IMG/VR virus record: IMGVR_UViG_3300021168_000003
Location: 1,954 to 65,953 of that record
Strand: one strand, 5' to 3'
Origin: a virus
Lineage: Duplodnaviria > Caudoviricetes
Length of the DNA stretch: 64,000 nt
Numbering within the stretch: position 1 is the first letter of the stretch; every line of letters begins with the position of its first letter. Positions 1 through 64,000 of this stretch are shown here, in pieces. Below the pieces are notes generated by a model that saw only the letters and a list, made by a program, of their open reading frames with translations, made no database searches and had not been told where the DNA came from. Position numbers and translations under genes: made by a program.

Positions 1-71
1 ACACACTCACAGGCGATCTACCCTGCGATCGCACGGTGGGAGGCAACCTTGCGTGGGTTAGGAGTGGAGCC

Positions 72-263
72 GTGAAAATAAAGATTGAATTTGACTGCGA
101 CAATGCAGCGTTTGAAGACGACATGACAGGCGAAATCTCATGCATATTGCGTGAGATAGCTGACGATATTGACCGTAGCGAGTTACATGATCTTCATGGC
201 GTTTATAGCCGTGTCAGCGACGTGAACGGAAACCAAATCGGGACAGTCCAGTTTTTCGCCTGA
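72..263 (+). CDS. small acidic early protein, hypothetical
   Basis: GTG start at 72 after GGAG; in frame with the 36..263 ORF. Confidence 0.6.
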   Translation: MKIKIEFDCDNAAFEDDMTGEISCILREIADDIDRSELHDLHGVYSRVSDVNGNQIGTVQFFA

Positions 264-310
264 CGCAGACCATACGCCTCACGGGGCGTATGTGCGGCAT
301 CAGCCGACCC

Positions 311-327
311 AGTAACACCCAGTTACT
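311..327. promoter_or_regulatory. palindromic operator-like box AGTAAC-N5-GTTACT (copy 1 of 5)
   Basis: AGTAACACCCAGTTACT just upstream of a TTGACA -35. Confidence 0.7.
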
Positions 328-333
328 AGGGAC

Positions 334-362
334 TTGACACAAGGACACTGACATGCTATGGT
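334..362 (+). promoter_or_regulatory. sigma70-like promoter containing an AGGACACTGAC box
   Basis: TTGACA-17nt-TATGGT; AGGACACTGAC at 342-352; inverted GTCAGTGT at 363-370. Confidence 0.7.
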
Positions 363-413
363 GTCAGTGTAATGAAGAAACGCGGCAACGACCGCAACAA
401 AGGGACCAGGAAC

Positions 414-1196
414 ATGTCACATGTCTTCGGACAATTCTTTTCGCTTGACAGTACTAAAGCGATAAAAGCACGCAAATATGGTTACCTCAACGCCATCAAT
501 TACATGGCCCCACACACGATGGCGGGCGACGGCAACGTCTGCGGCGACGCCAGCGCCGGTTGCATTGCACTGTGCCTCGGTTGGTTCAGTGGACATGTTA
601 GCAGGGTGAAGAAAGGCCAGGGCAAGCGCCCGTCCAACGCCGTGCGCAAGTCGCGCATCACCAAGGTCAAGATGTTCATGCATGAGCGAGCCGCGTTCAT
701 GAAGGAAATGGTTGCCGGCATCCTCCGCGCCGCGCGCAAGGCCATTCGCGAGGGGCTCAAGCTCTGCGTGCGGCCGAACGGTTCGTCCGATATCCCGTGG
801 GAAAGCATCAAGGTCTCGCGCGAGATGCCCATCAGCGTCTTTGAACTGTTTCCCGATGTCCAGTTCGTCGACTATACCAAGTCGCTGAAGCGTGCGCTGA
901 AGCACGCTCGCGGCGAGATGCCGGCGAACTATCACCTCACGTTCAGCCGGTCGGAGACCAACGAGGCGGACTGTGTCCGTGTCCTCGAGGCCGGTGGCAA
1001 CGTGGCTGTAGTGGCCGCATACGACGCCCCCGACACCTATCTTGGCTACCGCGTGATCGACGGCGACAAGCATGATCTGCGGTTCTTGGATGCCTTGGAC
1101 GAGGACGGTAGCGGCCGCGGCGCGTGCGTCGTGTGGCTGTCGCCCAAGGGCGTCAAGGCTCGCCGCGACACCTCAGGCTTCGTGGTGCGGCTATGA
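414..1196 (+). CDS. Gp88-like phage protein with three-Cys (radical-SAM-like) motif
   Basis: CGDASAGCIALC motif, FVDYTK, YHLTFSRSE and DGDKHDLRF motifs; ATG follows the GGGACCAGGAAC leader. Confidence 0.55.
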   Translation: MSHVFGQFFSLDSTKAIKARKYGYLNAINYMAPHTMAGDGNVCGDASAGCIALCLGWFSGHVSRVKKGQGKRPSNAVRKSRITKVKMFMHERAAFMKEMVAGILRAARKAIREGLKLCVRPNGSSDIPWESIKVSREMPISVFELFPDVQFVDYTKSLKRALKHARGEMPANYHLTFSRSETNEADCVRVLEAGGNVAVVAAYDAPDTYLGYRVIDGDKHDLRFLDALDEDGSGRGACVVWLSPKGVKARRDTSGFVVRL

Positions 1197-1414
1197 GACA
1201 GCACCTGACCCCAAAGCAACCGCGTGGCACGTTCAACGAGCTCGCCTACATCAAGCTCGAGCGCCTCGCGCGCGTCCTGGCGGGCGACATCGACCTGATG
1301 GTGGTCGCTCACCCTGAAGTGTGGGACCGTGCGCACAAGCGCTTTGAAGAGGCGCTTGACGAGTGGCTGCCGCTCAACCCGCAGCACGACAAGAGGATAG
1401 GAGGGCGCAAATGA
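1193..1414 (+). CDS. hypothetical protein
   Basis: ATGA overlap with the upstream stop. Confidence 0.55.
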   Translation: MRQHLTPKQPRGTFNELAYIKLERLARVLAGDIDLMVVAHPEVWDRAHKRFEEALDEWLPLNPQHDKRIGGRK

Positions 1415-1620
1415 CTGAATATCGAACGCGGCTCGACAGCCGGCAATGGCTGCCAAGCGCGGCCCCTTTACCACCCGCGATCTGGGACCCCATGATGAAG
1501 CTCGTTAAGGACGGTACATGGGCCAAGCTCGACCATCCGCTCACCACGGCGGTGTGCCACGCTTGTTTGCTGCACTACGATCGGCAGACCATCCTCATGA
1601 CCGGAGGGTTCAACGATTGA
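1411..1620 (+). CDS. hypothetical protein
   Basis: GGAGG RBS; ATGA overlap. Confidence 0.5.
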   Translation: MTEYRTRLDSRQWLPSAAPLPPAIWDPMMKLVKDGTWAKLDHPLTTAVCHACLLHYDRQTILMTGGFND

Positions 1621-1842
1621 CCCCCTGGTTCTGGTTCTGGGTGGCGAGCGTCGTCGTCTACGTGATCTTGCATTGGAGGATGACATGAGGCGCGAACAGA
1701 AGATCCGCATCTTTTACGAGAATGGCCGGTGGTGCTTCGCATACGGGGATGATCCCCCGATGGGGTTATGGGGGTCCATCCACCCAATGGTGCGCCAGAT
1801 GAAGCAATTCTACGACTGGCGCACCAGGATCGAGAAGCACCG

Positions 1843-2004
1843 ATGACCTGGCAACAGGCGTGCGACTGGGTCGACGACATCATCGACCGTCAGCCGGACC
1901 AGGACGACGCAGCGCCATACCCGGCGCTGCACTATCTCGATCGCGAGATGCGCGAGGCCGAGCGGGAGCTCGACAACTACGAAGAACAGGAGTTAAATCA
2001 GTGA
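1843..2004 (+). CDS. small acidic hypothetical protein
   Basis: coupled to a small ORF at 1685-1846 by an ATGA overlap. Confidence 0.45.
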   Translation: MTWQQACDWVDDIIDRQPDQDDAAPYPALHYLDREMREAERELDNYEEQELNQ

Positions 2005-2175
2005 CTATGAACAAATGTCAAGTTAGAGAGGCTCTGCGTAAAGAGCGTGCTGTGGCGAAGCGGCTCGTTGAGCGACGCAGGCTAGCACAAGAAAACCTCA
2101 TACTATCAACAAATCGCATAAGGGAGCTAGAGGACGCCCTCAAGGTCGCTCCTGAAGGTTGGAAGGGGTTTTGAA

Positions 2176-2730
2176 GTGACCATTGAAAGATTGAACCGCG
2201 CCGAGATTGTGCGGATGCACAAGGCAGGCAAGAGCCCCACCGAGATAGGTTTGCTGGTGCAAGCGCACCGCAGCACGATCTATTCCATCATCAACCCCAA
2301 GCCGTACACGAAGAAAGAGAAGCCGGTCGACCCGCGCCCGGCCGAGGTCGTGCGCCTGTGGCACGAGGGTCTTCTCGCCAGCGAGATCGCGCTCATGACT
2401 GGCATGCATAGGAACTCCGTCACGAGAACACTTCGTCAGCAGGGGCTCAAGCGTGAGCTCGTCGTGGAGGATGACCGTTGGGCCGAGGCCGAGCGCCTGT
2501 GGCGCGCCGGCAAACTGTCCGGCGAGATCGCGGCGACGATGCGTGACACCACGCGCAACGCCGTGATAGGGCACATGAAGCGCAGAATGATCTCGTGGGG
2601 CAACGCCCCGAAGCCTGTGACCCGCGAGACGGTGGCCCGCAAGCAGCGTGAGAGCCATAAGGACTGGACGAGCGCGTCAGCCGTGCGGCCCATCACACTG
2701 CCACGCGTTCGGTGGCTCGAAGCTGCGTAA
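2176..2730 (+). CDS. multi-HTH protein with a GcrA-like HTH
   Basis: three tandem HTH-like repeats; the third (LWRAGKLSGEIAATMRDTTRNAVIGHMKR) matches the GcrA N-terminal pattern. Confidence 0.65.
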   Translation: MTIERLNRAEIVRMHKAGKSPTEIGLLVQAHRSTIYSIINPKPYTKKEKPVDPRPAEVVRLWHEGLLASEIALMTGMHRNSVTRTLRQQGLKRELVVEDDRWAEAERLWRAGKLSGEIAATMRDTTRNAVIGHMKRRMISWGNAPKPVTRETVARKQRESHKDWTSASAVRPITLPRVRWLEAA

Positions 2731-2828
2731 CACTGTGAACCTATTTGACAAATCAGTTTCCCGACACTATGTAGGTCGGGCGAGGCCAGGGGATTAACCC
2801 CTGGCCAGCAAAAGCGAGGAGTAGGACA

Positions 2829-3104
2829 GTGGAGCAAGAGGTCGGTAAGCGTCCGAAGTCCAAGTCTGTAAGGGCTATGGGTCTGCCGCGTGTCGAAGCC
2901 AAGATCATGGAGCGCTCTTACCAGCGCGCCGGGGTCGTGGCGGGTGGCACGCTGCTTAGTTCGGGTGCGCGTCAAGCAACAATCACTTTTAAGCCTGGAG
3001 TATTTCGACTGGTCGAGCTTGCCGCCGCGGATAACCGCGTCTCGTTTTCAGAGATGGTGAGGCAGCTCGTCGAGAGGGGACTACACACACCACCGCAGAC
3101 CTAA
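2829..3104 (+). CDS. putative ribbon-helix-helix DNA-binding protein
   Basis: C-terminal ITFKPGVFRLVELAAADNRVSFSEMVRQLVERGL; own promoter TTGACA-17-TATGTA near 2745. Confidence 0.5.
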   Translation: MEQEVGKRPKSKSVRAMGLPRVEAKIMERSYQRAGVVAGGTLLSSGARQATITFKPGVFRLVELAAADNRVSFSEMVRQLVERGLHTPPQT

Positions 3105-3163
3105 GACACTAACCCGCCGGGTGGAGGCACCGTCCGGCGGGGGTTTACCCATCGAAGGAACGA

Positions 3164-3463
3164 ATGATGATCGAAGCCCCCATATCACTGGTCAGCGACG
3201 ACACGCCGTACGGCCTCGTCGCCACGATTAAGGACCGCCGCGTCCACCGCTACGAGCCTCCGCACCATGGCACGCTCGAGGAGGTGGTCAGGGAAGCCCT
3301 GAGCCACGCCCAGGACCTCGCCATCGTCCGGAGGCCTGACGGCTACCTGACGCTCAACCTCAGCCGCGTCGTCACGGTCCCGCTCTTCAAGATCAACCAG
3401 TGGTGGGTCAGCCTCAGCGGATCGGCTGCGATTGCGCAAGCAGTCTGGACCCTCAGGGATTGA
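3164..3463 (+). CDS. hypothetical protein
   Basis: AAGGA RBS; coding-like ORF. Confidence 0.5.
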   Translation: MMIEAPISLVSDDTPYGLVATIKDRRVHRYEPPHHGTLEEVVREALSHAQDLAIVRRPDGYLTLNLSRVVTVPLFKINQWWVSLSGSAAIAQAVWTLRD

Positions 3464-3517
3464 CACCTGTGGGCTCAGGCCTATATCAGTGTGAACGCAC
3501 TGACATGAGGCCGCCCG

Positions 3518-3787
3518 ATGGAACCCCGTTCGCTGATGGACTACGCCCGCGAGGCTGCCGAGCGAACCCGGCGCATCGAGACGCGCCTGACCAAGTGGCT
3601 GGTCTCCGAGGGTTTTGAGACGGGCAGCCAGCTGCCGGTGTGGTATGATGACGGCGTCGTCGAGGTGCCGTCCCGCGCCACCAGCCTCACAGACATCCAG
3701 TCGGTGGTCCCGATCGACTGGGATCGCGACTACGAGATCACTGTCATGTTTCGGGGGCATGTCCTGGGCGTCGTTCTGCGCCCCTGA
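3518..3787 (+). CDS. hypothetical protein
   Basis: GAGG RBS; TTGACA promoter at 3461. Confidence 0.55.
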   Translation: MEPRSLMDYAREAAERTRRIETRLTKWLVSEGFETGSQLPVWYDDGVVEVPSRATSLTDIQSVVPIDWDRDYEITVMFRGHVLGVVLRP

Positions 3788-4092
3788 GGAGCACCCGCAT
3801 GGCCATCCCTTTTGATCTGCCCTCTTCGCTTGTCGCCCTGGTGCCGCCTGTGCGTGTACCGCCGAGTGAAGTGGTTAAGCTGATCACAGACGCCTACGCC
3901 GCCGGCAAGCGGGCGGGCCAAGCTGAGTTACTGAAGATAGCCGTTGATGTAATTCAGCCTGTCCAGCGAAAATAAATATCGGATCGCCTACGTTTCGCCG
4001 TTGACATCGCTTACGCCGTCGTCCAAATGATGTCTTAACAGAGACACAATAAGTCTACAAGAACCTACTGGCTTAACTGATGGGACTAGGGA

Positions 4093-5184
4093 ATGCCTCA
4101 CCAATGGGTGTGGGCGGATGACCGCGTCGTCTCGATGGATTTCGAGACGAGTGGCCTCCAGCCCGAATTTGCGCTGCAGTCATGGAGAATACTGTCAGGC
4201 GAGGCTTGGGCCACGTCGATGGTGTGGGTGTGGCCGCAGGATGGCCGCGTCATGAACGGCGGCGGTCTTGTGCGTGACCGGCTTCACGCCAGGGGCATGA
4301 TCAACGAGTTCATCACTCACGTTCTGCACTACGACATCCGTGTCTGCGGCTGGAACCTCGCCTTCGACATCGGTGTCTTGATTGCTTACGGCGCGCCGAT
4401 TGAGAAGCTGCGCCGAGTGAAGTGGCTCGATGGCTACCTGCTATGGCGTCACCTCGACGTCGAGCCTGAGTACGACGACAAGGGCCCGCGCCGGTCATAC
4501 TCACTGAAGACCTACGTCCGCCAGCGATGGCCGCTCCAGGCTGGCTACGAGGCCGATGTCAACTTCCATGATGACAGCCTAGAGGCTCGCGTCAAGCTTC
4601 ATAGATACAACATTCAGGACTGTGTCTTCACCTTGATGGGCTGCAAGACCCTTTGGAATGCGCTGACGCCAGCGCAGCAGCGCGCCGCATCGATCGAGGC
4701 CGACTGCCTTGTCCATGTGGCCGAGGCCAACGTGCGGGGCATGCTGGTGGACACCATCCTGGCCCAGGACGTGGTCATCAAGCAGAGCACCATCGCCGCC
4801 GAGAGGCTCGCCTCGCTCGCACCGTTCGGCGTCACTGAGAAGATCGTCCGGTCACCGAAGCAGCTGGCCACGCTGTTCTTCGACACGTGGGGTCTGCCGG
4901 TCCAGAAGAACACGGCCACCGGCAACCGGTCGACCGACAAAGAGGTCATGCACGAGCTCGCATTCATCGACCCGCGGGTGAAGGAAGTGAAGGAGTACCG
5001 CGAGGCGCTCAACAATGTCACCAAGTTCGCCATGAACCCGATCGCGGCGGCGCGCTACAACGGCGACGGCCGGGCCCGGCCGCAGGCCATTGTGTTCGGG
5101 ACCTACACCGGGCGCATGACCTATGCGAGCAAGCAGACGAAGAAGAACCCCGAGGAGGCTGAGGTTGCCGACGCTTCCGACTGA
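4093..5184 (+). CDS. polA: DNA polymerase A, N-terminal part (3'-5' exonuclease, thumb, up to the TGR motif)
   Basis: DFETSG, GWNLAFD and YNIQD exonuclease motifs; SPKQL..LF, STDKEV, TYTGR. Confidence 0.85.
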   Translation: MPHQWVWADDRVVSMDFETSGLQPEFALQSWRILSGEAWATSMVWVWPQDGRVMNGGGLVRDRLHARGMINEFITHVLHYDIRVCGWNLAFDIGVLIAYGAPIEKLRRVKWLDGYLLWRHLDVEPEYDDKGPRRSYSLKTYVRQRWPLQAGYEADVNFHDDSLEARVKLHRYNIQDCVFTLMGCKTLWNALTPAQQRAASIEADCLVHVAEANVRGMLVDTILAQDVVIKQSTIAAERLASLAPFGVTEKIVRSPKQLATLFFDTWGLPVQKNTATGNRSTDKEVMHELAFIDPRVKEVKEYREALNNVTKFAMNPIAAARYNGDGRARPQAIVFGTYTGRMTYASKQTKKNPEEAEVADASD

Positions 5185-5353
5185 CGATCCCTTCGACTGG
5201 GAGCTGTTCGACGAGCAGCCCTTGTCAGTGCGCAAGGTGACCTGGGAGTTCAACGTGTTCCCAGACAAGTTGGTCGAGCCGAAGGACGCCGCGCGCGCCG
5301 CGCTGCTGATGATTGAGTATTGGGAGACGAAGGTAGGCGATGGCACCCCGTAA
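5165..5353 (+). CDS. small ORF inserted between the two polymerase halves
   Basis: TTG start after GAGGAGG; overlaps both polA parts. Confidence 0.5.
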   Translation: MPTLPTDDPFDWELFDEQPLSVRKVTWEFNVFPDKLVEPKDAARAALLMIEYWETKVGDGTP

Positions 5354-6200
5354 GACCACTGACTTCCAGATCGGCTGGGCAGTACACCAGATGAAGAGCG
5401 GCCCCGACTACCGCTCGATCATCGTGGCTCCGCACGGTCACTCGATCGTGGAGTTTGACGCGGCTGGGCAGGAGTTTCGGTTCATGGCCTTGATCAGTGG
5501 CGACACCACCATGCTGCACCTTTGCAGGCCCGGCGAAGACCCGCACTCGTTCATGGGCTCGAGGGCTGACACCCGGTATGAGTACCGTGAGCTGATCAAG
5601 CGGGTGGCTGAGGAGGACAAGGAGGCCAAGCGTATCCGCAAGGGCGGCAAGGTGCTGAACCTTAGTCTCCAATATAGAACTTCCCCTAAAACATTACGTA
5701 CAAGGTCACGCGTCGATCACGGCATGGACATGACGCCAGAGCAGGCGCAGCACAACTATTACGTCTACCACCGGACCTACCCCGGCGTGAAGGTTTATCA
5801 CAAGACTGCGATCGAGAAGACGCAGCAGTGCGGATATGCCGAGACGTTAGCTGGCCGTCGAGTACAGGTTATAGGTGACTGGGATAGATATGGCTGGCAG
5901 CTTGGGTCTACTGCCATAAATTACCCTGTCCAGGGCACCGGCGCTTGTCAGAAATACTTGGCTATTCGTGCGCTCAGCGAATTGTACACTGAGTTGGGTG
6001 CAAGATTTATGCTGGATCTTCACGACGGTCTTTTCAGCGTTGTGCCGGATCATTACGTCAGTGAGTTCTGCGACCGTGGCAAGAGAATACTTGACAACCT
6101 CCCATATGGTTCAGCCTGGGGTTACACACCGTCCATCCCGCTGCCGTGGGACGTGAAGGTGGGGAAGAGCTGGGGCGCGCTTCATGAGGTGAAGTTGTGA
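5340..6200 (+). CDS. polA: DNA polymerase A, C-terminal catalytic part
   Basis: motif A EFDAAGQEFR, motif B RKGGKVLNLSLQY, NYPVQGTGA, motif C LHDG. Confidence 0.88.
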   Translation: MAPRKTTDFQIGWAVHQMKSGPDYRSIIVAPHGHSIVEFDAAGQEFRFMALISGDTTMLHLCRPGEDPHSFMGSRADTRYEYRELIKRVAEEDKEAKRIRKGGKVLNLSLQYRTSPKTLRTRSRVDHGMDMTPEQAQHNYYVYHRTYPGVKVYHKTAIEKTQQCGYAETLAGRRVQVIGDWDRYGWQLGSTAINYPVQGTGACQKYLAIRALSELYTELGARFMLDLHDGLFSVVPDHYVSEFCDRGKRILDNLPYGSAWGYTPSIPLPWDVKVGKSWGALHEVKL

Positions 6201-16764: not shown

Positions 16765-17195
16765 CCGACCGCAACGCACCCCTCAGGCTCAAGGTCGCCG
16801 CCGAGATCGCCTTCCCGCATGGTGGGATAACGGCGGCGGGACTGCGCAAGGAAGCCGCGCGCGGAAAGTTGACGCTTGAACGGATCGCTGGAAAGGACTA
16901 CGTCACCCTCGCGGCAATTGAAGACATGAGGGACCGATGTCGAACCCGAGCAAGGGTGCCAGGCTATGGCTCAAGCCAGCCACCGCTACCCGCAAAGCCA
17001 TGTGGATCATCCGAGATGGTGAGCACCAGCGTGGCACTGGATGCAGCGCTGAGAACCGTGCAGAAGCTGAACGCCGGCTCGGCTGGTACCTTGGGGCAAA
17101 ACACACTCCCACCAGGGCATCGCATACTGACCCATCGTCAATCAAGATTGCCGACGTCGTCAACATCTACACCGCCGACCGCGGCGCGCAGATAG
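16761..17195 (+). CDS. xis: excisionase-like HTH protein
   Basis: LRLKVAAEIAFPHGGITAAGLRKEAARGKL...IAGKDYVT; overlaps int. Confidence 0.7.
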   Translation: MTDRNAPLRLKVAAEIAFPHGGITAAGLRKEAARGKLTLERIAGKDYVTLAAIEDMRDRCRTRARVPGYGSSQPPLPAKPCGSSEMVSTSVALDAALRTVQKLNAGSAGTLGQNTLPPGHRILTHRQSRLPTSSTSTPPTAARR

Positions 17196-18070
17196 CTCGG
17201 CCGGACCAGCTAGCCTCCAGGCTGCGCTTCCTCCTCGGTCTCCTCGGCGACAAGACCTTAGCCGACATCACGCCCGCAGCCTGCCGCGACTACGTCGCGC
17301 GGCGAGGCTCGGTGCAGGCCGCCAAGCGCGAGCTCGAGGATCTCCGAGCCGCGATCCGCCATCACTGGAAGGCGGGCTACTGCGACCGCGAGACGCGCGT
17401 CACGCTCCCTGCGAAGTCACTACCGCGCGAGCGCTGGCTCACCCGGGACGAGGCGGCCAAGCTGCTTCGCGCGGCGTGGCGCGAGCCGCAACGACACCAT
17501 GTCGCCCGGTTCATCCTAGTGGGGTTGTACACCGGGACCCGCGCCGCGGCGATCTGCTCCGCGTCGTTCCAGCCGGTAGGAGGCCGGGGGCTGGTCGACG
17601 TTGATCGCGGCGTCTTTTATAGACTCCCCCAAGGCAAGCAGCAAACGAAAAAGCGGCAGCCCACCATCCGCCTCCCTCCGCGGCTGCTAGCGCACATGCG
17701 CCGCTGGCGCGCGATGGGTGCTCAGTCGGTGGTGGAGTACGAGGGTCGGCCGGTCGACGATGTCAGCCGGGCGTTCACGCGCGCCGCGCGCGCCGCTGGT
17801 CTAGGAGGGGTGATGCAGCACACGCTGCGCCACACCGCCATCACCTGGGCGATGCAGAACGGTGCCGGCATGTACGAGGCTGCGGGGTACTTCGGGGTCT
17901 CGGCGCGGATCATCGAGCAGACCTACGGTCACCACCACCCCGACTACCAAGAGAGCGTCGGAGCTGCGGTCACGGCGCGGCCGTCCCAGGTTCGTCCCAG
18001 GTTGGCGGGAACGAACGGTGTAGATAACAGGCGTTCGGCCCAAACGCAGTCAATTATTTCAGATACTTAG
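16937..18070 (+). CDS. int: tyrosine integrase
   Basis: YTGTR, HTLRHTAITW, YGHH catalytic motifs. Confidence 0.92.
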   Translation: MSNPSKGARLWLKPATATRKAMWIIRDGEHQRGTGCSAENRAEAERRLGWYLGAKHTPTRASHTDPSSIKIADVVNIYTADRGAQIARPDQLASRLRFLLGLLGDKTLADITPAACRDYVARRGSVQAAKRELEDLRAAIRHHWKAGYCDRETRVTLPAKSLPRERWLTRDEAAKLLRAAWREPQRHHVARFILVGLYTGTRAAAICSASFQPVGGRGLVDVDRGVFYRLPQGKQQTKKRQPTIRLPPRLLAHMRRWRAMGAQSVVEYEGRPVDDVSRAFTRAARAAGLGGVMQHTLRHTAITWAMQNGAGMYEAAGYFGVSARIIEQTYGHHHPDYQESVGAAVTARPSQVRPRLAGTNGVDNRRSAQTQSIISDT

Positions 18071-24799: not shown

Positions 24800-24877
24800 C
24801 TCCATACCACCCGTGCAGGACACTGACAAGACAGTCCACTGACATGGCTTGCGCCCCGGATTATCGCGTGGTAAGCC
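24800..24877. promoter_or_regulatory. divergent promoter pair with AGGACACTGAC box
   Basis: minus TTGTCA-17-TATGGA; plus TTGCGC-17-TAAGCC; box at 24817-24827. Confidence 0.5.
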
Positions 24878-33540: not shown

Positions 33541-34470
33541 TTACGCAGCCTTCGGCATGAGGACGTTGACGGCCGGCGGGGCGGCGTCGTTGACGACGAC
33601 CTGCGGATGACCGGCGTCCGCGTCGATGTTCACTGCTGCGGTAGAGGAGCCGGACATCGCGGCAGCGCGGGCGTCGGCGATCACCTTGACCGTTAGGCTG
33701 GCGACTGCACTGACAGCAGCCAAGCCGCCGAGGACGTACCCGAAATACTTGAAGTGCGGGAGCGCGGTCTGGACCGGCGCGAGGTTGGCGGAGGCGCTGG
33801 TGGCGATCGCGCCGGCCGAGGAGGCGGCCGTCGTCGCATGCGTAGCAACGAGGCTGAGCTTCGAGACCTTGACGTCAGTGACCGGGGCCTTGCGGTGGCC
33901 GCCGGCCGCCGACACGTCTACCGGATGCGGGGCGGGTGCCCCGGCCGCCCAGGCGTCACCCGTCTTCATGACGTTGGCGATGCGGGCGTTCCAGCCGTTG
34001 CCGAACTCGGACCAGGTCCTGAGGGAGTGGAGGGTGGCCAGTCGGCGCGCGCAATAGGCTCCAATCAGAGCCTCGACATCGCCGAAATCCTCAATCGCTT
34101 GAAGGGTCTTGGAGCCGATGATACCGTCGATTGCCCCTGGAAACTTGGTCCCGAGAGCATGCTGCAGCCACTTGCCTGACTGGCCTGGGCCGGAGTTCAC
34201 GCCGCCGTCGAAGACGCACAGATCGAGGCCGGCCGGCAGGTCGTCGCCACGCACGGCGTCCCAGTACTTGAGCTTGTAGATAGTGCTGACTTCGTCGAGG
34301 GTGATCGAGTAGACGTCGGCCGCAGACATGCCGTTCTCACGCAGATAGGCGTTGAACGTGATCTGGGTGACGCCCTTGTTCGTGCGCCCGCCCGGGTCGC
34401 GGGGGTTGTCGACCTTGCCACCTTCGTAGACGAGGATGCGGGGGAGCGCCTTGGCGAAATCGGCCTGCAT
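33541..34470 (-). CDS. endolysin, glycoside hydrolase family 108 with PG-binding domain and hydrophobic C-terminus
   Basis: EGG.VDNPRDPGGRTNKGVT, FDGGVNSG, DGIIG.KT, FG.GW..R. Confidence 0.88.
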   Translation of the reverse strand: MQADFAKALPRILVYEGGKVDNPRDPGGRTNKGVTQITFNAYLRENGMSAADVYSITLDEVSTIYKLKYWDAVRGDDLPAGLDLCVFDGGVNSGPGQSGKWLQHALGTKFPGAIDGIIGSKTLQAIEDFGDVEALIGAYCARRLATLHSLRTWSEFGNGWNARIANVMKTGDAWAAGAPAPHPVDVSAAGGHRKAPVTDVKVSKLSLVATHATTAASSAGAIATSASANLAPVQTALPHFKYFGYVLGGLAAVSAVASLTVKVIADARAAAMSGSSTAAVNIDADAGHPQVVVNDAAPPAVNVLMPKAA

Positions 34471-43434: not shown

Positions 43435-43608
43435 GTTAAGTCTCCTGTGTTGAGTAACGTCCAGCCTTGGGTGGTGATCCACCTAAGGAAGTCTTCAGCG
43501 ATCTGCTCATCAGTTGCGCCAGCATTGTGAACTGCGGCAAAGCCGCCTGAGTTCGCCCAGGCGACGATCATCTGCTTCGCAGCCTCATCGACCGGCACGT
43601 CAGTGTCC

Positions 43609-58849: not shown

Positions 58850-58860
58850 ACAGTCCTAAG

Positions 58861-58888
58861 AATGTAGCACGGTTCGGACGTGCGTCAA
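58861..58888 (-). promoter_or_regulatory. tRNA operon promoter
   Basis: TTGACG-16-TACATT (GCTACATT). Confidence 0.65.
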
Positions 58889-58990
58889 CGGTCGCGCGCT
58901 TGAGGAGATAGGCAGTTGGCAGAAACTAGCAGGAAATTGGCAGGCAAAAGCAGGACGCTGCCCGAAGGATGTAGCATGGTTCGGCCAAGA

Positions 58991-59094
58991 AAGAAAAAAG
59001 GACCGCAGCCCTCTGGTGCCGTTAGGCAGTTGTCCCCAGGGCTGCGGTCGAGTCTGGCCTAACTGCTAGGTGGGACCAGGAATGGTTTCCTAGC
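58991..59094 (-). ncRNA. candidate antisense small RNA against the shared early/polA RBS leader
   Basis: promoter TTGTTT-17-CATATC (59129-59101); GCUAGG/CCUAGC hairpin with loop AAACCAUUCCUGGUCCCA; 12-bp terminator stem plus U tract; no ORF. Confidence 0.65.
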
Positions 59095-59330
59095 GGTACT
59101 GATATGGCAGCATTGTTGACGGGAAACAATAGGTGATTCTACGTAGTTTGTACGGAGTCTAAGCTGGTATTGGTTTGAGCAGAAGTACAACAGAAATGTT
59201 AGGGAGTTGCTTAAGTAAATTTGCTAAAAAATTTTCAAAAAGTTACGCGTGCTACGATGGAACCGCGCGACGCCATAGCAACTCTTTCCCCCCTTACACC
59301 CCTTCAAAAGCAAAGAATGCTTATTCGCCT

Positions 59331-59347
59331 AGTAACGCGAAGTTACT
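59331..59347. promoter_or_regulatory. AGTAAC-N5-GTTACT box upstream of the first early promoter
   Basis: AGTAACGCGAAGTTACT followed by TTGACT...GCTATTGT. Confidence 0.65.
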
Positions 59348-59426
59348 GCGCCGCGTTTGACTTCTCTCGCGTTTGTGCTATTGTTTGAGTGTGGCAATCA
59401 CGTCACGCATCGAAAGGCCTAACACC

Positions 59427-60122
59427 ATGTCAAACATCTCCAACCAAGACGCAATGCGCGCAGCGGGCAAAGGCTCACAGCAGTCTTATGCATCGGCCAT
59501 TGCTATCCTCACTGGCCAGACTGACGAAGCGTATATCGCTACATTGCGTCAGGACTATCTGATCGGCGCTTTGACTGGCGTCGACGGCGTCACGGTCGAA
59601 CAAGCGATTGACTACCTTCCCGTTGCTGACGCCAAGCCTGGCACGAAGGGCAAATGGTCCGACTTCCCGGTCAACGATCCGTCAACGTTCGACGCGACCG
59701 TGCATCGGCCGCGCGACGTTCACAACGCCTACCGCTCCGGCCTCATGGGCTGGTCGCGCGTTCGCGCGTCAGCTGGCCTCCCGTCGCTCAAGGCCACGAC
59801 TAAGCATGAGCCGCGCGCGCCCAAGTCCGCCGCCGAGACTGGCGTCGCTGTGGCCGTCGATACCTTCGTCGCGCCGTCGCATCTCGATACCGCCGCCGCG
59901 GTCCAGTTGGCGCATCACCTCGAGGATGTCCTGCGCCGCGTTCTCGGCTCAAAGGAAATTAAGGGTGACGCTGGCAAGGCGCTAAGGGATATGCACCGCG
60001 ATATGACCGAATATCTTGCGGAGGCTGATAAGGCCTTAGCGCCGGCCACCGAAACGCAGGACGAGATAATTAAGCGCCTAACGGCTGAACTAGCTAAGCG
60101 GCCGGTTAAGAAAGCCGCTTAA
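59427..60122 (+). CDS. monocistronic early protein, hypothetical
   Basis: own promoter, GAAAGG RBS, own terminator. Confidence 0.65.
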   Translation: MSNISNQDAMRAAGKGSQQSYASAIAILTGQTDEAYIATLRQDYLIGALTGVDGVTVEQAIDYLPVADAKPGTKGKWSDFPVNDPSTFDATVHRPRDVHNAYRSGLMGWSRVRASAGLPSLKATTKHEPRAPKSAAETGVAVAVDTFVAPSHLDTAAAVQLAHHLEDVLRRVLGSKEIKGDAGKALRDMHRDMTEYLAEADKALAPATETQDEIIKRLTAELAKRPVKKAA

Positions 60123-60195
60123 GGCTTAACTCCTAGACCGATCGAAACTCGGATACCGATCGTTCTTGGAAGTGTTCTGATTACCAGTTAAGATT

Positions 60196-60224
60196 AAGGG
60201 CCGCGCGAGCGGCCCTTTTTGTTT
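60196..60224 (+). terminator. rho-independent terminator
   Basis: AAGGGCCGC-GCGA-GCGGCCCTT followed by TTTGTTT. Confidence 0.85.
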
Positions 60225-60577
60225 GTCCGGAGTTTTATTAGCGCTAAGCTAAAGTTAAGCGCTTAAGCGGCGTCATGCATACCGTAAGTCATTGATGTTC
60301 CAAAACACCATATATATATATATATCTATTATAGATTATTCGACGAAAGGACTCGTCTGAGAAGATTTTTCCGCTGCCTTACGGGCTTAACGGCTAAAAT
60401 CTCGTTAAGCGCTTAAAACTCTAAACCACACGTACACGTCGTATAAAGTCCCCTTCTAGAAATTCTCTCTTTTCGTCGAATAACGCCCTCCAGTTTAATG
60501 TATAATCCATGTCAGTGTCCTTTCAGTGTGTTGCCCTATTGCGCTTTCACGCCTTAACGCTTATTTTAAGCTAAGAA

Positions 60578-60600
60578 GTCAGTAACAGGGTGTTACTGAC
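60578..60600. promoter_or_regulatory. extended palindromic box GTCAGTAAC-N5-GTTACTGAC
   Basis: perfect 9-bp arms. Confidence 0.7.
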
Positions 60601-60627
60601 ACCTTAAAACCCTTAAGAGACACTGAC

Positions 60628-61461
60628 ATGGGCCGTGAAACTCGCAACAGAGCCACTTACATAGGCTACCCTCGCTTCGTAAGAGGTGACTTAGGTGATG
60701 GGAATAGCCGCGCCGTGATACCTGCGCCTTATCGTAAATTCGACGCTGGCCACGTTTACGAGAACGTCCAGGTCGTAAACCGTAAACGACGGCTAGGATT
60801 TAACGACATGGTGGAAGTGCTCCACCATGTTCCGTTTATAAAATGGACGGTGGACGATCAGGCTGAGGCGGTTAAGCGCGGCTATTTCGTCGAACGCCAT
60901 GCTCACGACAATCACGCGATCATCATCCCGCTGCCGCTGCACACATTCAAGAGCGATAGCGAAGTGATGTCCTCTGAAATGAAGCGTGCGAAAGACGGTG
61001 ACAGGTGGACAATCGAACGCTTTTTGCCGTTCGTTGTCCAGCAGGATCAGCGTGGCTGGACTGGAACATGGGACAAGGCAATCGAGACTTATAACGCCAA
61101 ATTGATTTGGTATAGAACGCGCGTAGCTGCCACGCGAGCCGCCCGCGACGCAGCAGCTGCATCGAAGCCTCGCGGCAGGCCGAAGGGTACGCCCTACGCC
61201 CGCGAGCTATTCGCCGAGCAACAGTTCAAGGCGTGGCCAGTGGCCAGCGGCGTGACATTCCACGATTGGTGCAAAACGCAACCATCGTTCGGTGAATGGT
61301 TGGAGCTCAATCCGGACGCCAACGTCCCACGCACATGGAAGCCGAAAGACTACAGCGTGCCGACGGCCAAAGAGCAGTATGAGGCCCGCATCCGCGAGGC
61401 TTACGGCAACGACGCGCTTAGCGATCCGGAGCACGCGTGGAGGCCCAAAAGCCGACAGTGA
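60628..61461 (+). CDS. hypothetical protein with AT-hook-like motif
   Basis: KPRGRPKG motif; follows an AT-rich structured region. Confidence 0.55.
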   Translation: MGRETRNRATYIGYPRFVRGDLGDGNSRAVIPAPYRKFDAGHVYENVQVVNRKRRLGFNDMVEVLHHVPFIKWTVDDQAEAVKRGYFVERHAHDNHAIIIPLPLHTFKSDSEVMSSEMKRAKDGDRWTIERFLPFVVQQDQRGWTGTWDKAIETYNAKLIWYRTRVAATRAARDAAAASKPRGRPKGTPYARELFAEQQFKAWPVASGVTFHDWCKTQPSFGEWLELNPDANVPRTWKPKDYSVPTAKEQYEARIREAYGNDALSDPEHAWRPKSRQ

Positions 61462-61465
61462 AAAC

Positions 61466-61494
61466 TTGACATAAGCTCACAGATGTGGTATGGT
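61466..61494 (+). promoter_or_regulatory. sigma70-like early promoter
   Basis: TTGACA-17-TATGGT; AGTAAC-N5-GTTACT box downstream at 61551-61567. Confidence 0.7.
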
Positions 61495-61595
61495 GTTACT
61501 TCAGTTAGGAAAAGTGTCTGCCCACTGACAATTTTAATTGACACACGCCTAGTAACATGTCGTTACTGAGGCAAAAAAGAGAGGGGACCAGGAAC

Positions 61596-61817
61596 ATGTC
61601 ACAACCGTATTTCTGCGAAGGCTCCGACGCCATGGTTGATTTAGAGACCATGGTTGACCGCGTCGGCTTGAACAATGTGCTCTATGCGCTGGCTCACATA
61701 TGCCGCGCCAAAGGCGAGCATCTCAGAGCGGCGTGGCAAGACGCTACTACCGCCAATGTGTGGGACAAGAATGCTGTCGCATTGGACAGGGTCCAAGAGC
61801 GCTTGATCCGAACTTGA
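61596..61817 (+). CDS. early hypothetical protein
   Basis: GGGACCAGGAAC-ATG leader. Confidence 0.65.
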   Translation: MSQPYFCEGSDAMVDLETMVDRVGLNNVLYALAHICRAKGEHLRAAWQDATTANVWDKNAVALDRVQERLIRT

Positions 61818-61913
61818 CCGCTTTCGATGCCGCTCCATTGCGTGCGGCATCACTGGCGACCAACGCCAACCCAGTAACGATGTGTTACTGAGGATAAAGA
61901 AGGGACCAGGAAC

Positions 61914-62333
61914 ATGTCAGAGATCGACATCACAGATTTCGTGTTGAACGTCAACACGCACGACCTATCAGCCAGCGTCGCTGAAATGGGCCAGAATGCT
62001 GGTAAGATCACTTGGGCTAACGCCAAGAGCGAGGCCCAGACATATCAATTCATCACTGAAGACAACCGTCCTGAGTTTGAAGCTTGGGTCGAAGGCTTCG
62101 GCGCATGGGATGAAGACGAGCGCAAGTCATGGTCGCTTGACGAGTGCAACGCGCTATTGATCCAGTTCATTGCGGGCGACATGAACGAAATTGAGGCCTT
62201 GTGCTCCGACTTCGAAGGCGAGATTGATTGGGACGCCGTCGAACAACTGGGCCAAGCAGGGACGATTAGCTCGCGCATATACGGCGGGTCGCAATCTATC
62301 GACGGCCGCATCTATTTCTACATGGGCGACTGA
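61914..62333 (+). CDS. acidic early hypothetical protein
   Basis: GGGACCAGGAAC-ATG leader; box at 61873-61889. Confidence 0.65.
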   Translation: MSEIDITDFVLNVNTHDLSASVAEMGQNAGKITWANAKSEAQTYQFITEDNRPEFEAWVEGFGAWDEDERKSWSLDECNALLIQFIAGDMNEIEALCSDFEGEIDWDAVEQLGQAGTISSRIYGGSQSIDGRIYFYMGD

Positions 62334-62424
62334 CCGCTTTAGAAGGGCACGCGAGACGTGCCCTTCACTGGCGACCAAGCCAGCGCTAGGCTAAAAGGCC
62401 AGCGTCAACACAGGGACCAGGACC

Positions 62425-62589
62425 ATGTTTGAGCCGATCAAAGCGCTTGTGGAGCACGTGTGGCCCACACGCTATTACCTCTGGTACATCGACGGCAAGC
62501 CCGTCCATCTGACGATGGCCCAGTGTATCGACGAAATGGAGCGTGAGGCGCTGAAGCGCTCGCTGCGCTCGCTGGCGGTGTCGAAATGA
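62425..62589 (+). CDS. small early protein
   Basis: GGGACCAGGACC-ATG leader. Confidence 0.55.
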   Translation: MFEPIKALVEHVWPTRYYLWYIDGKPVHLTMAQCIDEMEREALKRSLRSLAVSK

Positions 62590-62846
62590 CCGCCTCCAAG
62601 AACGACACCATCGATCTATTCGTCTGCGTCGATTGTGGCTTCCAACTGGCCTATGGCGACGTTGAGAACCCCGACCCGCGATGGAACCCTGACGCGTTTG
62701 CACGCAAGTGGGACGGCTACGTCGTCGTCAACGGCGACAGCGACAAGGACCGTGACTTCAGCTGGTCAAGCTGTGACGGTTGCGGCTCAACGTTCGGCGG
62801 TGCTCGCATGCATTGCGTCGCTTGGGAAATGGAGGCCGTCAAATGA
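62586..62846 (+). CDS. small Zn-finger-like early protein
   Basis: CVDC ... FSWSSCDGCGS..GG.R. Confidence 0.6.
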   Translation: MTASKNDTIDLFVCVDCGFQLAYGDVENPDPRWNPDAFARKWDGYVVVNGDSDKDRDFSWSSCDGCGSTFGGARMHCVAWEMEAVK

Positions 62847-63079
62847 CCCACCTCACAACCCATCAAATGCTCTACCGCGAGCAAATGGACGTGGCCATCA
62901 GCCGCGCCTACGAGACGCCTAACCGGCCGCTGATCGAGCTAGCCATGGGCCACGTTCAAGTGGCCTACCGCACTGGCGTCATCGACGCTGAGACGGCTTA
63001 CGGCCTCCGGTTCGATCTGGCGCATGCCCTCCCGCTTCAGACCAACGGCTGGCTTGGCATCGACAAGGGGGGACACTGA
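62843..63079 (+). CDS. early hypothetical protein
   Basis: GGAGG RBS; ATGA overlap. Confidence 0.5.
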   Translation: MTHLTTHQMLYREQMDVAISRAYETPNRPLIELAMGHVQVAYRTGVIDAETAYGLRFDLAHALPLQTNGWLGIDKGGH

Positions 63080-63080
63080 C

Positions 63081-63242
63081 ATGCTCCGACCCAAGTCCAG
63101 ACACCTCAGTCGCGTCCACGTGCTCTTCGACCGCTGGCGCTTCTTTACCGCCATGCTCATCATCGGCTGCGCCATCCTCATAGCTGTGGCGTATTGGGAC
63201 GTTCTGCCAGCGTTCTCTTCTATTACGGAGTGGTTGCCATGA
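63081..63242 (+). CDS. small membrane protein
   Basis: one TM segment; followed by a second TM peptide ORF at 63239-63385. Confidence 0.45.
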   Translation: MLRPKSRHLSRVHVLFDRWRFFTAMLIIGCAILIAVAYWDVLPAFSSITEWLP

Positions 63243-63456
63243 CCTACGAACGCCTATTCCTGATCCTCGCCATACTGGCGTTGTTTGACCTCATGTTCGT
63301 TGTCGCCCTCGCGCGGCCGATCAAATACGACGAACACGGGAAGCCGATACGCGTGCCGTTCGAAGACGGCAAGCGTCGGCGCTGAGTCCCCGTCAGCACG
63401 GGTGATTGCTGGACCTCGCACAACATGGAGGATGCCATGATCCTCGGCCGGTAATA

Positions 63457-63513
63457 GGTCGAAACGGCGCTTAACGCGCGCCGTCGCCACGTAAAGCGTG
63501 GCCTGACGAGACC
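63457..63513 (+). ncRNA. type II hammerhead ribozyme
   Basis: GGTC-GAAA-stem III (ACGGCGC/GCGCCGT)-C-stem I (GCCACG/CGTGGC)-CTGACGA-GACC; predicted cut after GUC at 63485. Confidence 0.85.
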
Positions 63514-63534
63514 AAATGAAAAGGGACTAGGAAC

Positions 63535-64000
63535 ATGAAACTTACATACCGCAAACTCCGGCTAGCAGGGGCTTGCTCAGTACAAGCCGAATATTTCCGC
63601 GAGTTATTCCCTAAAGGCGTTGTGGTTACCGCCGCCGTCTGCGCCAGCGTCGCTTGCGAGTTTGATTGGGATTGGGCCGCTGGTAACCTGTTACCTACGC
63701 TGCTGCAGGCTGACTACTACGCCAAGCGCGCGCCGCTGCATGCTGACTACTACGCCAAGCGCGCGCCGCTGCATGCTGACTACGACGCCAAGCGCGCGGC
63801 GCTGCAGGCTGACTACGACGCCAAGCGCGCGCCGCTGCAGGCTGACTACGACGCCAAGCGCGCGGCGCTGCAGGCTGACTACGACGCCAAGCGCGCGGCG
63901 CTGCAGGCTGACTACGACGCCAAGCGCGCGCCGCTGCAGGCTGACTACGACGCCAAGCGCGCGGCGCTGCAGGCTGACTACGACGCCAAGCGCGCGGCGC
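63535..64000 (+). CDS. early protein with 11-aa tandem repeats (truncated by window end)
   Basis: GGGACTAGGAAC-ATG leader; GAC..Q...F..LFP, FDWDWAA, then (LQADYDAKRAP)n. Confidence 0.75.
   Translation, partial: MKLTYRKLRLAGACSVQAEYFRELFPKGVVVTAAVCASVACEFDWDWAAGNLLPTLLQADYYAKRAPLHADYYAKRAPLHADYDAKRAALQADYDAKRAPLQADYDAKRAALQADYDAKRAALQADYDAKRAPLQADYDAKRAALQADYDAKRAA
63703..63999 (+). repeat. 33-bp tandem repeat, 9 copies, continuing past the window end
   Basis: CTGCAGGCTGACTACGACGCCAAGCGCGCGSCG with few variants. Confidence 0.95.

Follow-up and report, generated by a model that had tools for sequence, protein, structure and literature searches.

Why do unrelated genes of one phage begin behind the same 12 nucleotides (nt)? 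The question is raised by a 64,000-nt stretch of DNA from a soil virus of the Caudoviricetes (IMG/VR record IMGVR_UViG_3300021168_000003). This stretch, here called the window, covers bases 1954-65953 of a single virus contig of 65,953 bp, and the phage is coded G000. A first-pass annotation of the letters had pointed to a standardised leader fused to ATG at 402, 61584, 61902, 62413 and 63523, with a variant at 4082 in front of the DNA polymerase gene polA. The leader, GGGACYAGGAAC, is a real repeat, linked to start codons and private to this phage. We consider it, with a probability of about 60%, to be a phage-private start-associated sequence (SAS), a ribosome-binding tag for a set of early genes under joint control that is also the constant edge of swappable gene cassettes. 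Its start-linked copies in the window are the following.

402-413, plus strand: leader copy GGGACCAGGAAC, adjoining ATG 414, about 40 nt downstream of a sigma70-like promoter.
4082-4092, plus strand: diverged leader copy GGGACTAGGGA, directly before ATG 4093 of the N-part of the split polA.
61584-61595, plus strand: leader copy before ATG 61596, with the palindrome 61551-61567, GAGG and an A-rich tract upstream.
61902-61913, plus strand: leader copy before ATG 61914, with the palindrome 61873-61889, GAGG and an A-rich tract upstream.
62413-62424, plus strand: one-mismatch leader copy GGGACCAGGACC, before ATG 62425.
63523-63534, plus strand: leader copy GGGACTAGGAAC, before ATG 63535.

The copies at 402, 61584, 61902 and 63523 match exactly, all on the plus strand; the mean in 100 dinucleotide shuffles of the window was 0.00, and none of the shuffles held an exact copy. 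With one mismatch allowed, the count rises to six against 0.55 expected, adding the copy at 62413 and another at 59072 (GGGACCAGGAAT). With two mismatches it is 17 against 8.2 expected and, therefore, most two-mismatch matches are noise; the polA copy at 4082, which reads GGGACTAGGGA-ATG, is found among them. A further exact copy followed by ATG lies at contig position 164, outside the window. In total, the contig holds six start-linked copies with at most one mismatch, one diverged copy (polA) and one orphan (59072). No copy of GGGACYAGGA was found on the minus strand of the whole contig. As the first-pass annotation had foreseen for a scan of both strands, at up to one mismatch the tag is restricted to start codons plus 59072.

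ATG adjoins the tag with 0 nt between them in all seven start-linked copies, and 59072 is the sole exception. When the six full copies are aligned, 10 of the 12 conserved columns that make up the tag are identical in 6/6. Conservation stops sharply at position -13 in all six. Upstream of this point only A-richness is left (54 A in 108 bases, or 50% over 18 nt, compared to 19% A in the genome), and on the other side TCA follows the ATG in four of these six. Every copy lies on the plus strand, from window 59.0 kb to 4.1 kb across the contig ends, and none is in the virion arm. Since all 12 positions are preserved, with one orientation and no nt between tag and ATG, in surroundings that vary, we infer that the tag is read on the mRNA, as a common tag.

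The proteins encoded behind the tag are unrelated, as had been claimed, and show no significant mutual similarity (best pairwise BLASTP E-value 0.045). The tagged open reading frames (ORFs) have 54, 73, 139, 182, 260, 363 and more than 155 codons, and their G+C content is 0.66-0.83 at third codon positions versus 0.37-0.46 at second positions. The annotated products are a GP88-family protein, the N-part of a split family-A polymerase and a match to phrog_24784; the remaining products had no match in Pfam and PHROGs scans. In the window these genes are located as follows.

414-1196, plus strand: first tagged gene, GP88-family protein of 260 aa (PF17338, E-value 5.7e-38).
4093-5184 and 5340-6200, plus strand: N-part and second part of the split family-A DNA polymerase, with the diverged tag before the N-part.
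61596-61817, plus strand: tagged ORF of 73 aa without a family match.
61914-62333, plus strand: tagged ORF of 139 aa, phrog_24784.
62425-62589, plus strand: tagged ORF of 54 aa, followed by two ATGA-overlapping untagged ORFs.
63535 to the window end, plus strand: tagged ORF that enters a 33-bp tandem repeat and runs off the window.

Three of these genes have features of their own. An in-frame ATG at 372, about 10 nt past the -10 box of the promoter at 334-362, is an alternative start of the GP88-like gene, which could therefore start almost leaderless; the tag would then be coding sequence. In polA, a small ORF (5165-5353) overlaps between the two parts, and relatives match both parts separately. 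The gene from 63535 contains at least 11 copies of the 33-bp tandem repeat (an 11-residue unit), which runs from 63636 to 64000 and into the contig start. Both contig ends are inside this repeat, which leaves its real copy number and the circular junction uncertain.

The tagged genes lie on a rightward arm that starts after two minus-strand tRNA genes at 58.7-58.85 kb. This arm contains many small ORFs, then polA, a SNF2 helicase, a DUF927 primase-like protein and an integrase (16937-18070); the minus strand carries the virion genes. Upstream of six of the seven tagged genes there is more than 50 nt of non-coding DNA, and their untagged neighbours mostly overlap the preceding gene (ATGA or GTGA).

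Is the tag simply a Shine-Dalgarno (SD) sequence? Gene starts were taken from 93 calls made by a simple codon-bias script. GGAG or GAGG is found at -18 to -4 in 38 of the 93 (19/47 on the plus strand and 19/46 on the minus strand). The capsid, portal-side and tail genes have AGGAG 5-7 nt before the start, for which duplexes of -7 to -11 kcal/mol with a generic 16S rRNA 3' tail are predicted. GGAG is absent from the tag. With such a 16S tail it pairs best in a split form (five pairs, a 3-nt bulge and two pairs) that uses 7 nt, ends 2-3 nt from the ATG and reaches only about -5.5 kcal/mol. The tag does contain SD-like elements, GGGA 8 nt and AGGA 2 nt before the ATG, behind the A-rich tract. Because these are the sole SD-like elements of the tagged genes, position and sequence suggest that the tag is their ribosome-binding site. 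Two remarks of the first-pass annotation are borne out here: conservation goes beyond what an SD needs, with 12 conserved columns against a bulged pairing of 7 nt, and the tag is not this genome's general SD.

It is extremely improbable that the tag is nothing special, that is, a chance match or the extended SD preferred by the host. GGGA and AGGA can pair with the 16S 3' tail, GGGAC lies 16 nt or less from three untagged predicted starts (1492, 16937 and 24124), and a looser GGGAC...GAAC form is found at 34470. Overall, GGGAC stands within 16 nt of 10 predicted starts compared to 0.9 expected; therefore, a GGGAC-type SD seems to be used beyond the tag too, for example by the integrase gene. 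However, this explanation is already contradicted by the shuffles, none of which gave any exact copy, by the GGAG-type SDs at normal spacing in other genes of the same genome, and by the 16S pairing of the tag, which is weaker than that of the late genes. An exact scan of 2.9 million viral contigs also gave only single scattered matches: the tag followed by ATG was found at 64 IMG/VR loci, with one match each and none with a second relaxed copy or the palindrome, and these matches were therefore treated as chance. Two other possibilities were rejected. As the -10 box of leaderless mRNAs, the tag is a poor match to the sigma70 hexamer. As the promoter of a phage RNA polymerase, it would have only 12 nt of conservation, and the scan of large proteins revealed no RNA polymerase.

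What lies upstream of the tag? The spacers contain promoters, palindromes and repeated blocks.

334-362, plus strand: sigma70-like promoter TTGACA-17-TATGGT (score 10/12), preceding the tag at 402.
61466-61494, plus strand: twin sigma70-like promoter TTGACA-17-TATGGT (score 10/12), preceding the tag at 61584.
59357-59384, plus strand: weaker sigma70-like promoter from the promoter search.
311-327, 59331-59347, 60581-60597, 61551-61567 and 61873-61889, no strand assigned: 17-bp palindrome AGTAAC-N5-GTTACT (5 copies vs 0.03 expected).
61815-61865 and again 62331-62380, plus strand: repeated intergenic block of TGA-CCGCTTT, a G+C hairpin and TCACTGGCGACCAA, the upstream part of spacers that end in the leader.

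Promoters scoring 10/12 precede two of the seven tags, and G+C hairpins without a T-run precede three others. The palindromes at 311 and 59331 abut the -35 box of promoters. From those at 61551 and 61873 the distance to the tag downstream is 17-22 nt, with GAGG and the A-rich tract in between; for one of the five copies this distance is 75 nt. A dimeric DNA-binding protein probably uses the palindrome as its operator. Overall, the intergenic module is loose and mosaic, and its sharply conserved end is the tag.

An 8-mer, ACACTGAC, is also abundant in these surroundings. It occurs 25 times on both strands and throughout the window, compared to 1.9 expected (for example at 345-352, 363-370, 24820-24827, 43599-43606, 60511-60518 and 60620-60627), often as GGACACTGAC directly before a start codon. 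Inverted pairs of it flank the -10 box of the 334-362 promoter and the palindrome at 60581. Among the relatives described below, it is equally enriched in G005 (25 copies) and G006 (8 in 23 kb) and at background level in the others. This 8-mer may be a second regulatory site.

The tag itself could in principle act on DNA, as an asymmetric operator, of the stoperator type, for a phage repressor that silences the early arm in the lysogen, with 59072 as the operator of the control region. In favour of this, an integrase gene is present (16937-18070), all sites point the same way and keep to a single arm, and the extra one at 59072 is found in the control region beside the first early promoter. 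We nevertheless find this very unlikely. A roadblock to transcription leaves the 0-nt spacing to ATG in all six full copies unexplained, and the palindrome, with its excess of copies and its two positions against a -35 box, is a better fit to an operator. Pope et al. argued likewise against such a reading in their text on the SAS of mycobacteriophages (PMC3203893).

Do other phages have this leader? Among deposited phages there are only distant relatives, with at most 45% capsid identity (Pseudomonas phage Rollin), and no DNA similarity to them was found for window 60000-64000 or 1-6000. Relatives in IMG/VR have 73-92% capsid identity in 80 loci, and a prophage relative with 65% identity lies in a Burkholderia anthina chromosome. 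We examined 13 long records as a whole (G001-G005 and G008-G015), plus one 23-kb fragment (G006). Five complete relatives have polA, exonuclease, helicase, primase, portal, capsid and tail genes at 30-81% amino acid identity. By tblastn against these five, 21 of 22 small ORFs from window 59.4 kb to 3.5 kb had no match and one had a 30% match. The five lack the tag of G000: it was found in them 0 times exactly and four times with one mismatch, compared to seven for a reversed-pattern control.

Several anchors were used in the search for closer relatives. With the N-part of polA in IMG/VR, 0 of 94 pattern matches were confirmed as a relative. A 277-aa early protein had no match in metagenome contigs, and the module of palindrome plus tag had none in metagenome contigs and none in genome contigs. 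The portal led to two fragments only, and the 23-kb G006 stops short of the early arm. A scan for conserved spacer motifs returned only G005, one near-identical fragment and one unrelated contig.

Leaders of the relatives were then compared by a uniform search, in which the 12 nt before each ATG opening at least 40 codons were clustered at up to two mismatches. The identical search at offsets -60 and +45 served as the control. The largest clusters were as follows.

G000: 7 (six tag copies and a looser minus-strand site before ATG 24124); controls 3 and 4.
G003: 8; controls 4 and 5.
G010: 10; controls 3 and 3.
G014: 10; controls 3 and 3.
G005: 5; controls 4 and 5.
G004: 4; controls 3 and 3.
Other eight relatives: 3-4, at control level.

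Five of the 13 relatives (G003, G004, G005, G010 and G014) carry their own start-linked repeat, which often follows a palindrome specific to the genome. In G005, the core AGGATCAG stands 3-8 nt before ATG at 10 places of the early arm (ORFs were checked for five of the ten), and five of the 10 copies are preceded by the palindrome GATTAAC-NN-GTTAATC and GAG. In G010, G014 and G004 the leader is (A)AGGAGTRACTKAMC-ATG, and some copies are behind a GTTACA...TGTAAC palindrome; in G004 the leader copies number 5-6. The palindromes of G005, G010, G014 and G004 differ from that of G000 and occupy the same place; in G003, the palindrome TCTGGGTAGCTACCCAGA is found in 10 copies. G000 and G005 have a common layout of palindrome, GAG, purine-rich tract, RGGAYCAGNAMC and ATG. 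The core RGGAYCAG is kept between the two, and their spacers and ORFs are otherwise not alignable. Another kind of start-linked repeat was seen in G008 (L251-L254, about 58.2-60.5 kb), where a module of about 45 nt, consisting of a hairpin and then tandem CGGTGATGTT units, occurs four times directly before ATG-TT codons.

Do genes come and go behind these leaders? G010, G014 and G004 are collinear, with 73-77% nucleotide identity. The interval from a conserved 360-aa gene to a conserved gene of 383/384 aa (77% identical) contains six (G010), about eight (G014) and three (G004) small ORFs. The leader heads many of them, and no BLASTP similarity was found between genomes at E ≤1e-3. A second variable spot has one, two and one ORFs, respectively. 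The leader is not bound to one gene family; the orthologue of 281-285 aa has it in G010 and G014 and lacks it in G004. Genes thus turn over beside a constant leader in these relatives. This is an association and not recombination driven by the leader. The first-pass annotation had suggested that gene swaps in the early regions of related phages would be bounded by the motif, and that the leader may serve as microhomology for cassette shuffling. The swaps are there, in three relatives that carry a different leader; a causal role of the leader in recombination does not follow from them.

What is the copy at 59072, which heads no gene? It lies between a terminator and the first early promoter, in the following setting.

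59072-59083, plus strand: orphan copy GGGACCAGGAAT without a gene; the sole frame is ATG-GTT-TCC-TAG, and the minus-strand complement is an 11-nt perfect anti-leader.
59065-59094, no strand assigned: hairpin GCTAGG...CCTAGC enclosing the orphan; the minus-strand fold has a UUCC apical loop and a CCC internal loop.
58988-59049, minus strand: intrinsic terminator with a 12-bp G+C-rich stem (59049-59038 / 59012-59001) and then a T-run.

The first-pass annotation had proposed that the leader is the target of a small RNA at 59 kb or of an RNA-binding protein. A plus-strand RNA cannot have this role: 59072 has the same sense as the leaders and, therefore, only a minus-strand transcript could pair with them. 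Such a transcript would end at 59049-58988, carry AUUCCUGGUCCC in its hairpin and block ribosome binding on the seven mRNAs. We consider this unlikely, but several observations are consistent with it. In 5000 shuffles of the 281-nt spacer, none equalled the match of the orphan to the tag (11/12), no ORF fills the spacer at 59.08-59.33 kb, and the terminator, the clearest intrinsic one in the region, is 21 nt downstream of the anti-leader. Predicted duplexes of the anti-leader with all seven tags have energies from -20.5 to -22.8 kcal/mol; no other predicted start goes below -15.8, and the 93 starts have a median of -7.3 kcal/mol. The variable Y of the tag faces G and the A-to-G change of the polA copy faces U, so both keep a pair (for Y, G-C or G-U). 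G005 has the same order of minus-strand terminator, 26 nt and a hairpin with a 6-nt loop complementary to GATCAG, its own leader core, and its spacer aligns in patches with that of G000.

Other results speak against the small RNA. No sigma70-type promoter for it was found on the minus strand, and the best relaxed candidates score 7.5/12 and are not conserved between G000 and G005. In G005, the loop-leader match alone was reached by 757 of 5000 shuffles. The corresponding hairpin of G010 and G014 precedes a real plus-strand gene and carries no anti-leader. In Rfam, only two tRNAs reached the gathering threshold, and 58850-60650 gave one meaningless weak match (E up to 1), so no family was assigned to the spacer. 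The orphan may also be the scar of a lost cassette, or a copy sequestered in cis on a plus-strand RNA. A long-range duplex ranking of the initiation regions against the 41-nt hairpin was uninformative because large loops inflated the energies, and it was replaced by the short-stretch calculation given above. In the literature searched, no paper was found that links the term start-associated sequence with small RNA, and papers on phage-encoded small RNAs and early genes were, by their titles and abstracts, on other subjects.

Taken one step further, the tag and the hairpin at 59065-59094 would be a matched pair: the minus-strand RNA would shut off translation of the whole early set including the polymerase, and relatives would change tag and anti-tag together. 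We regard this as speculative and are inclined to doubt it. If it were true, each phage would have a private translational code, and this might be a mechanism for the start-associated sequences of phages generally. Either way, a gene-less copy in a hairpin beside a terminator is a concrete candidate for the partner of the tag.

According to the reading that we prefer, the tag would be the invariant last 12 nt of the untranslated spacer before seven genes on the rightward, presumably early, arm. Its six exact or near-exact copies head small ORFans and the GP88-like gene, and the diverged copy the split DNA polymerase. It would serve these genes as ribosome-binding site and be read on the mRNA, and one factor, a protein or the anti-leader RNA, could handle the translation of the whole set together. 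It may also be the constant 5' boundary of gene cassettes that turn over, while relatives keep their own tag before non-homologous ORFs. The earlier idea of a shared regulatory address is reasonable in light of conservation beyond the SD, a single orientation, zero spacing to ATG and genome-specific versions; the regulator itself is putative. If one factor does read the tag, a 12-nt address would be enough for a phage to set the timing of an entire class of accessory genes or to keep them silent, and the tag could mark early accessory genes in metagenomic phages.

Several points weigh against this reading. First, copying of modules could keep the 12 nt uniform without any factor, and the modules at 61584 and 61902 are alike over about 55 nt. 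The tag would then be only the end of a unit of promoter, spacer and ribosome-binding site that was duplicated or gene-converted ahead of every new gene, an ordinary site made uniform by recombination (microhomology). This explanation, which we see as possible though clearly a minority view, would also account for the block of TGACCGCTTT, hairpin and TCACTGGCGACCAA common to the spacers before 61902 and 62413, and for the cassette numbers that differ between collinear relatives with a leader at each junction. It has a precedent in T4-type phages, whose mapped crossovers fall in the interval from the -10 box to the SD (PMC2839356). However, the conservation of the six copies drops abruptly at -13, unlike that of decaying duplications, and RGGAYCAG is kept between G000 and G005 though their spacers and ORFs are unalignable. 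Moreover, 12 nt is short for homologous exchange.

Second, no close relative with the same tag was found in the collections searched. The four soil DNA sequencing runs with the phage gave contigs identical to the window, with no variants to compare, and no RNA run is among the runs listed for it. Third, the leader of G004, G010 and G014 begins with a canonical AAGGAG; therefore, a strong ordinary ribosome-binding site and a conserved spacer may suffice in these three. No common RNA fold was found around the seven tagged initiation regions, in which the mean unpaired probability of the tag is 0.34-0.67. Finally, the gene calls and their start choices are crude.

The early arm and its border contain other features. 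The protein encoded at 2191-2730 has an N-terminal helix-turn-helix and a GcrA-like domain (PF07750, E-value 4.2e-08) and may regulate transcription of the early arm. Tandem TTGGCAG-N6-GCAGG units at 58894-58960 and a 23-nt block duplicated at 58855-58877 and 58962-58984 are found a short way upstream of the tRNA promoter. Both could be protein-binding repeats, such as arm-type or packaging sites. A sigma54-type reading of the units at 58.9 kb was rejected, with a spacing, judged by eye, that is one nt short. The non-coding stretch 60200-60620 follows a strong plus-strand terminator (60196-60217) and contains several direct and inverted repeats and a (TA)n run near 60311-60335. It lies in the part of the window with the lowest G+C content (0.515 for 60-62 kb). 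This stretch is a candidate origin or switch region.

How does the tag compare with known systems? The stoperators of Cluster A mycobacteriophages are many asymmetric 13-bp sites of a temperate phage, in one orientation relative to transcription. They resemble the tag in their asymmetry and single orientation, and in the temperate lifestyle of the phage, but they work at the DNA level, and their positions are in no fixed register with start codons. In phage T4, RegA and RegB are phage factors that act on the initiation regions of many early mRNAs. The likeness would lie in one phage factor serving many early initiation regions, and the target motifs are the difference; no RegA or RegB homologue was found in Pfam and PHROGs scans of about 40 window proteins.

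For the cassette aspect, the nearest model is the promoter-early stem-loop (PeSL) cassettes of T4-type phages, whose crossovers were mentioned above (Arbiol et al. 2010; PMC2839356). From what is described there, both are repeated intergenic modules (stop codon, promoter and/or stem-loop, SD and ATG) that flank ORFans in hypervariable early regions, and the gene content of relatives differs exactly at the modules in both. In contrast, PeSL modules are conserved over about 100 bp around the promoter and stem-loop, while here conservation covers 12 nt at the start codon. A recognisable promoter is present at only two of the seven tags, and the recombination of modules described for PeSL corresponds here only to the turnover of ORFs in relatives. 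In our reading, the tag is the constant edge of ORFan cassettes that turn over. Citrobacter phage Mordin has a 26-bp start-linked repeat that its authors likened to SAS (PMC4611695); as reported, it differs from the tag in length and sequence, and Mordin is a Felix O1-like myovirus.

The tag belongs to the SAS kind, with its defining features and a different sequence family. The SAS of Cluster K mycobacteriophages, as described in 2011, is a 13-bp asymmetric repeat, GGGATAGGAGCCC, present in 11-19 copies in the non-structural arm only (PMC3203893). Its distance to the start codon, mostly ATG, is 3-7 bp, and the genes behind it have upstream gaps of more than 50 bp. It is conserved beyond 16S rRNA pairing and heads differing gene families, with single odd copies off starts. 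Inverted repeats of 17 bp, called ESAS, stand upstream of about half of the SAS, and the authors view them as DNA-binding sites with a subcluster-specific consensus. Whether a host protein, a phage protein or an RNA reads the SAS was left open by them (PMC3203893). In the text of papers from 2024 and 2025, the role of SAS is still called unknown, putative promoters are placed in ESAS, and subcluster K8 is given as lacking SAS (PMC11373665, PMC12699233).

Going by these descriptions, both elements are short, asymmetric and in one orientation, lie in the non-structural arm at the position of the ribosome-binding site and strongly prefer ATG. Both stand mostly before genes with a gap of more than 50 bp, are conserved beyond 16S pairing, head unrelated gene families and have an occasional gene-less copy. 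Inverted repeats of 17 bp precede a subset of both, and genome-specific inverted repeats upstream of some start-linked repeats, an ESAS-like feature, are found here. GGGA...AGGA is in both, and this pattern is all that the tag has in common with GGGATAGGAGCCC: it lacks the AGGAG core and falls outside the SAS consensus family at up to two mismatches. The tag abuts the ATG, compared to 3-7 bp for SAS, and has seven copies, compared to 11-19. The lineage is also unrelated: this is a soil phage, not a Cluster K actinophage, whose relatives are of proteobacterial type and whose nearest prophage relative is in Burkholderia. The related phages here carry different tags, while one SAS consensus runs across the Cluster K subclusters analysed, and this makes specificity testable by swapping tags. 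Thus, a design described in 2011, whose role the 2024 and 2025 papers still call unknown, is found again in an unrelated lineage of soil phages.

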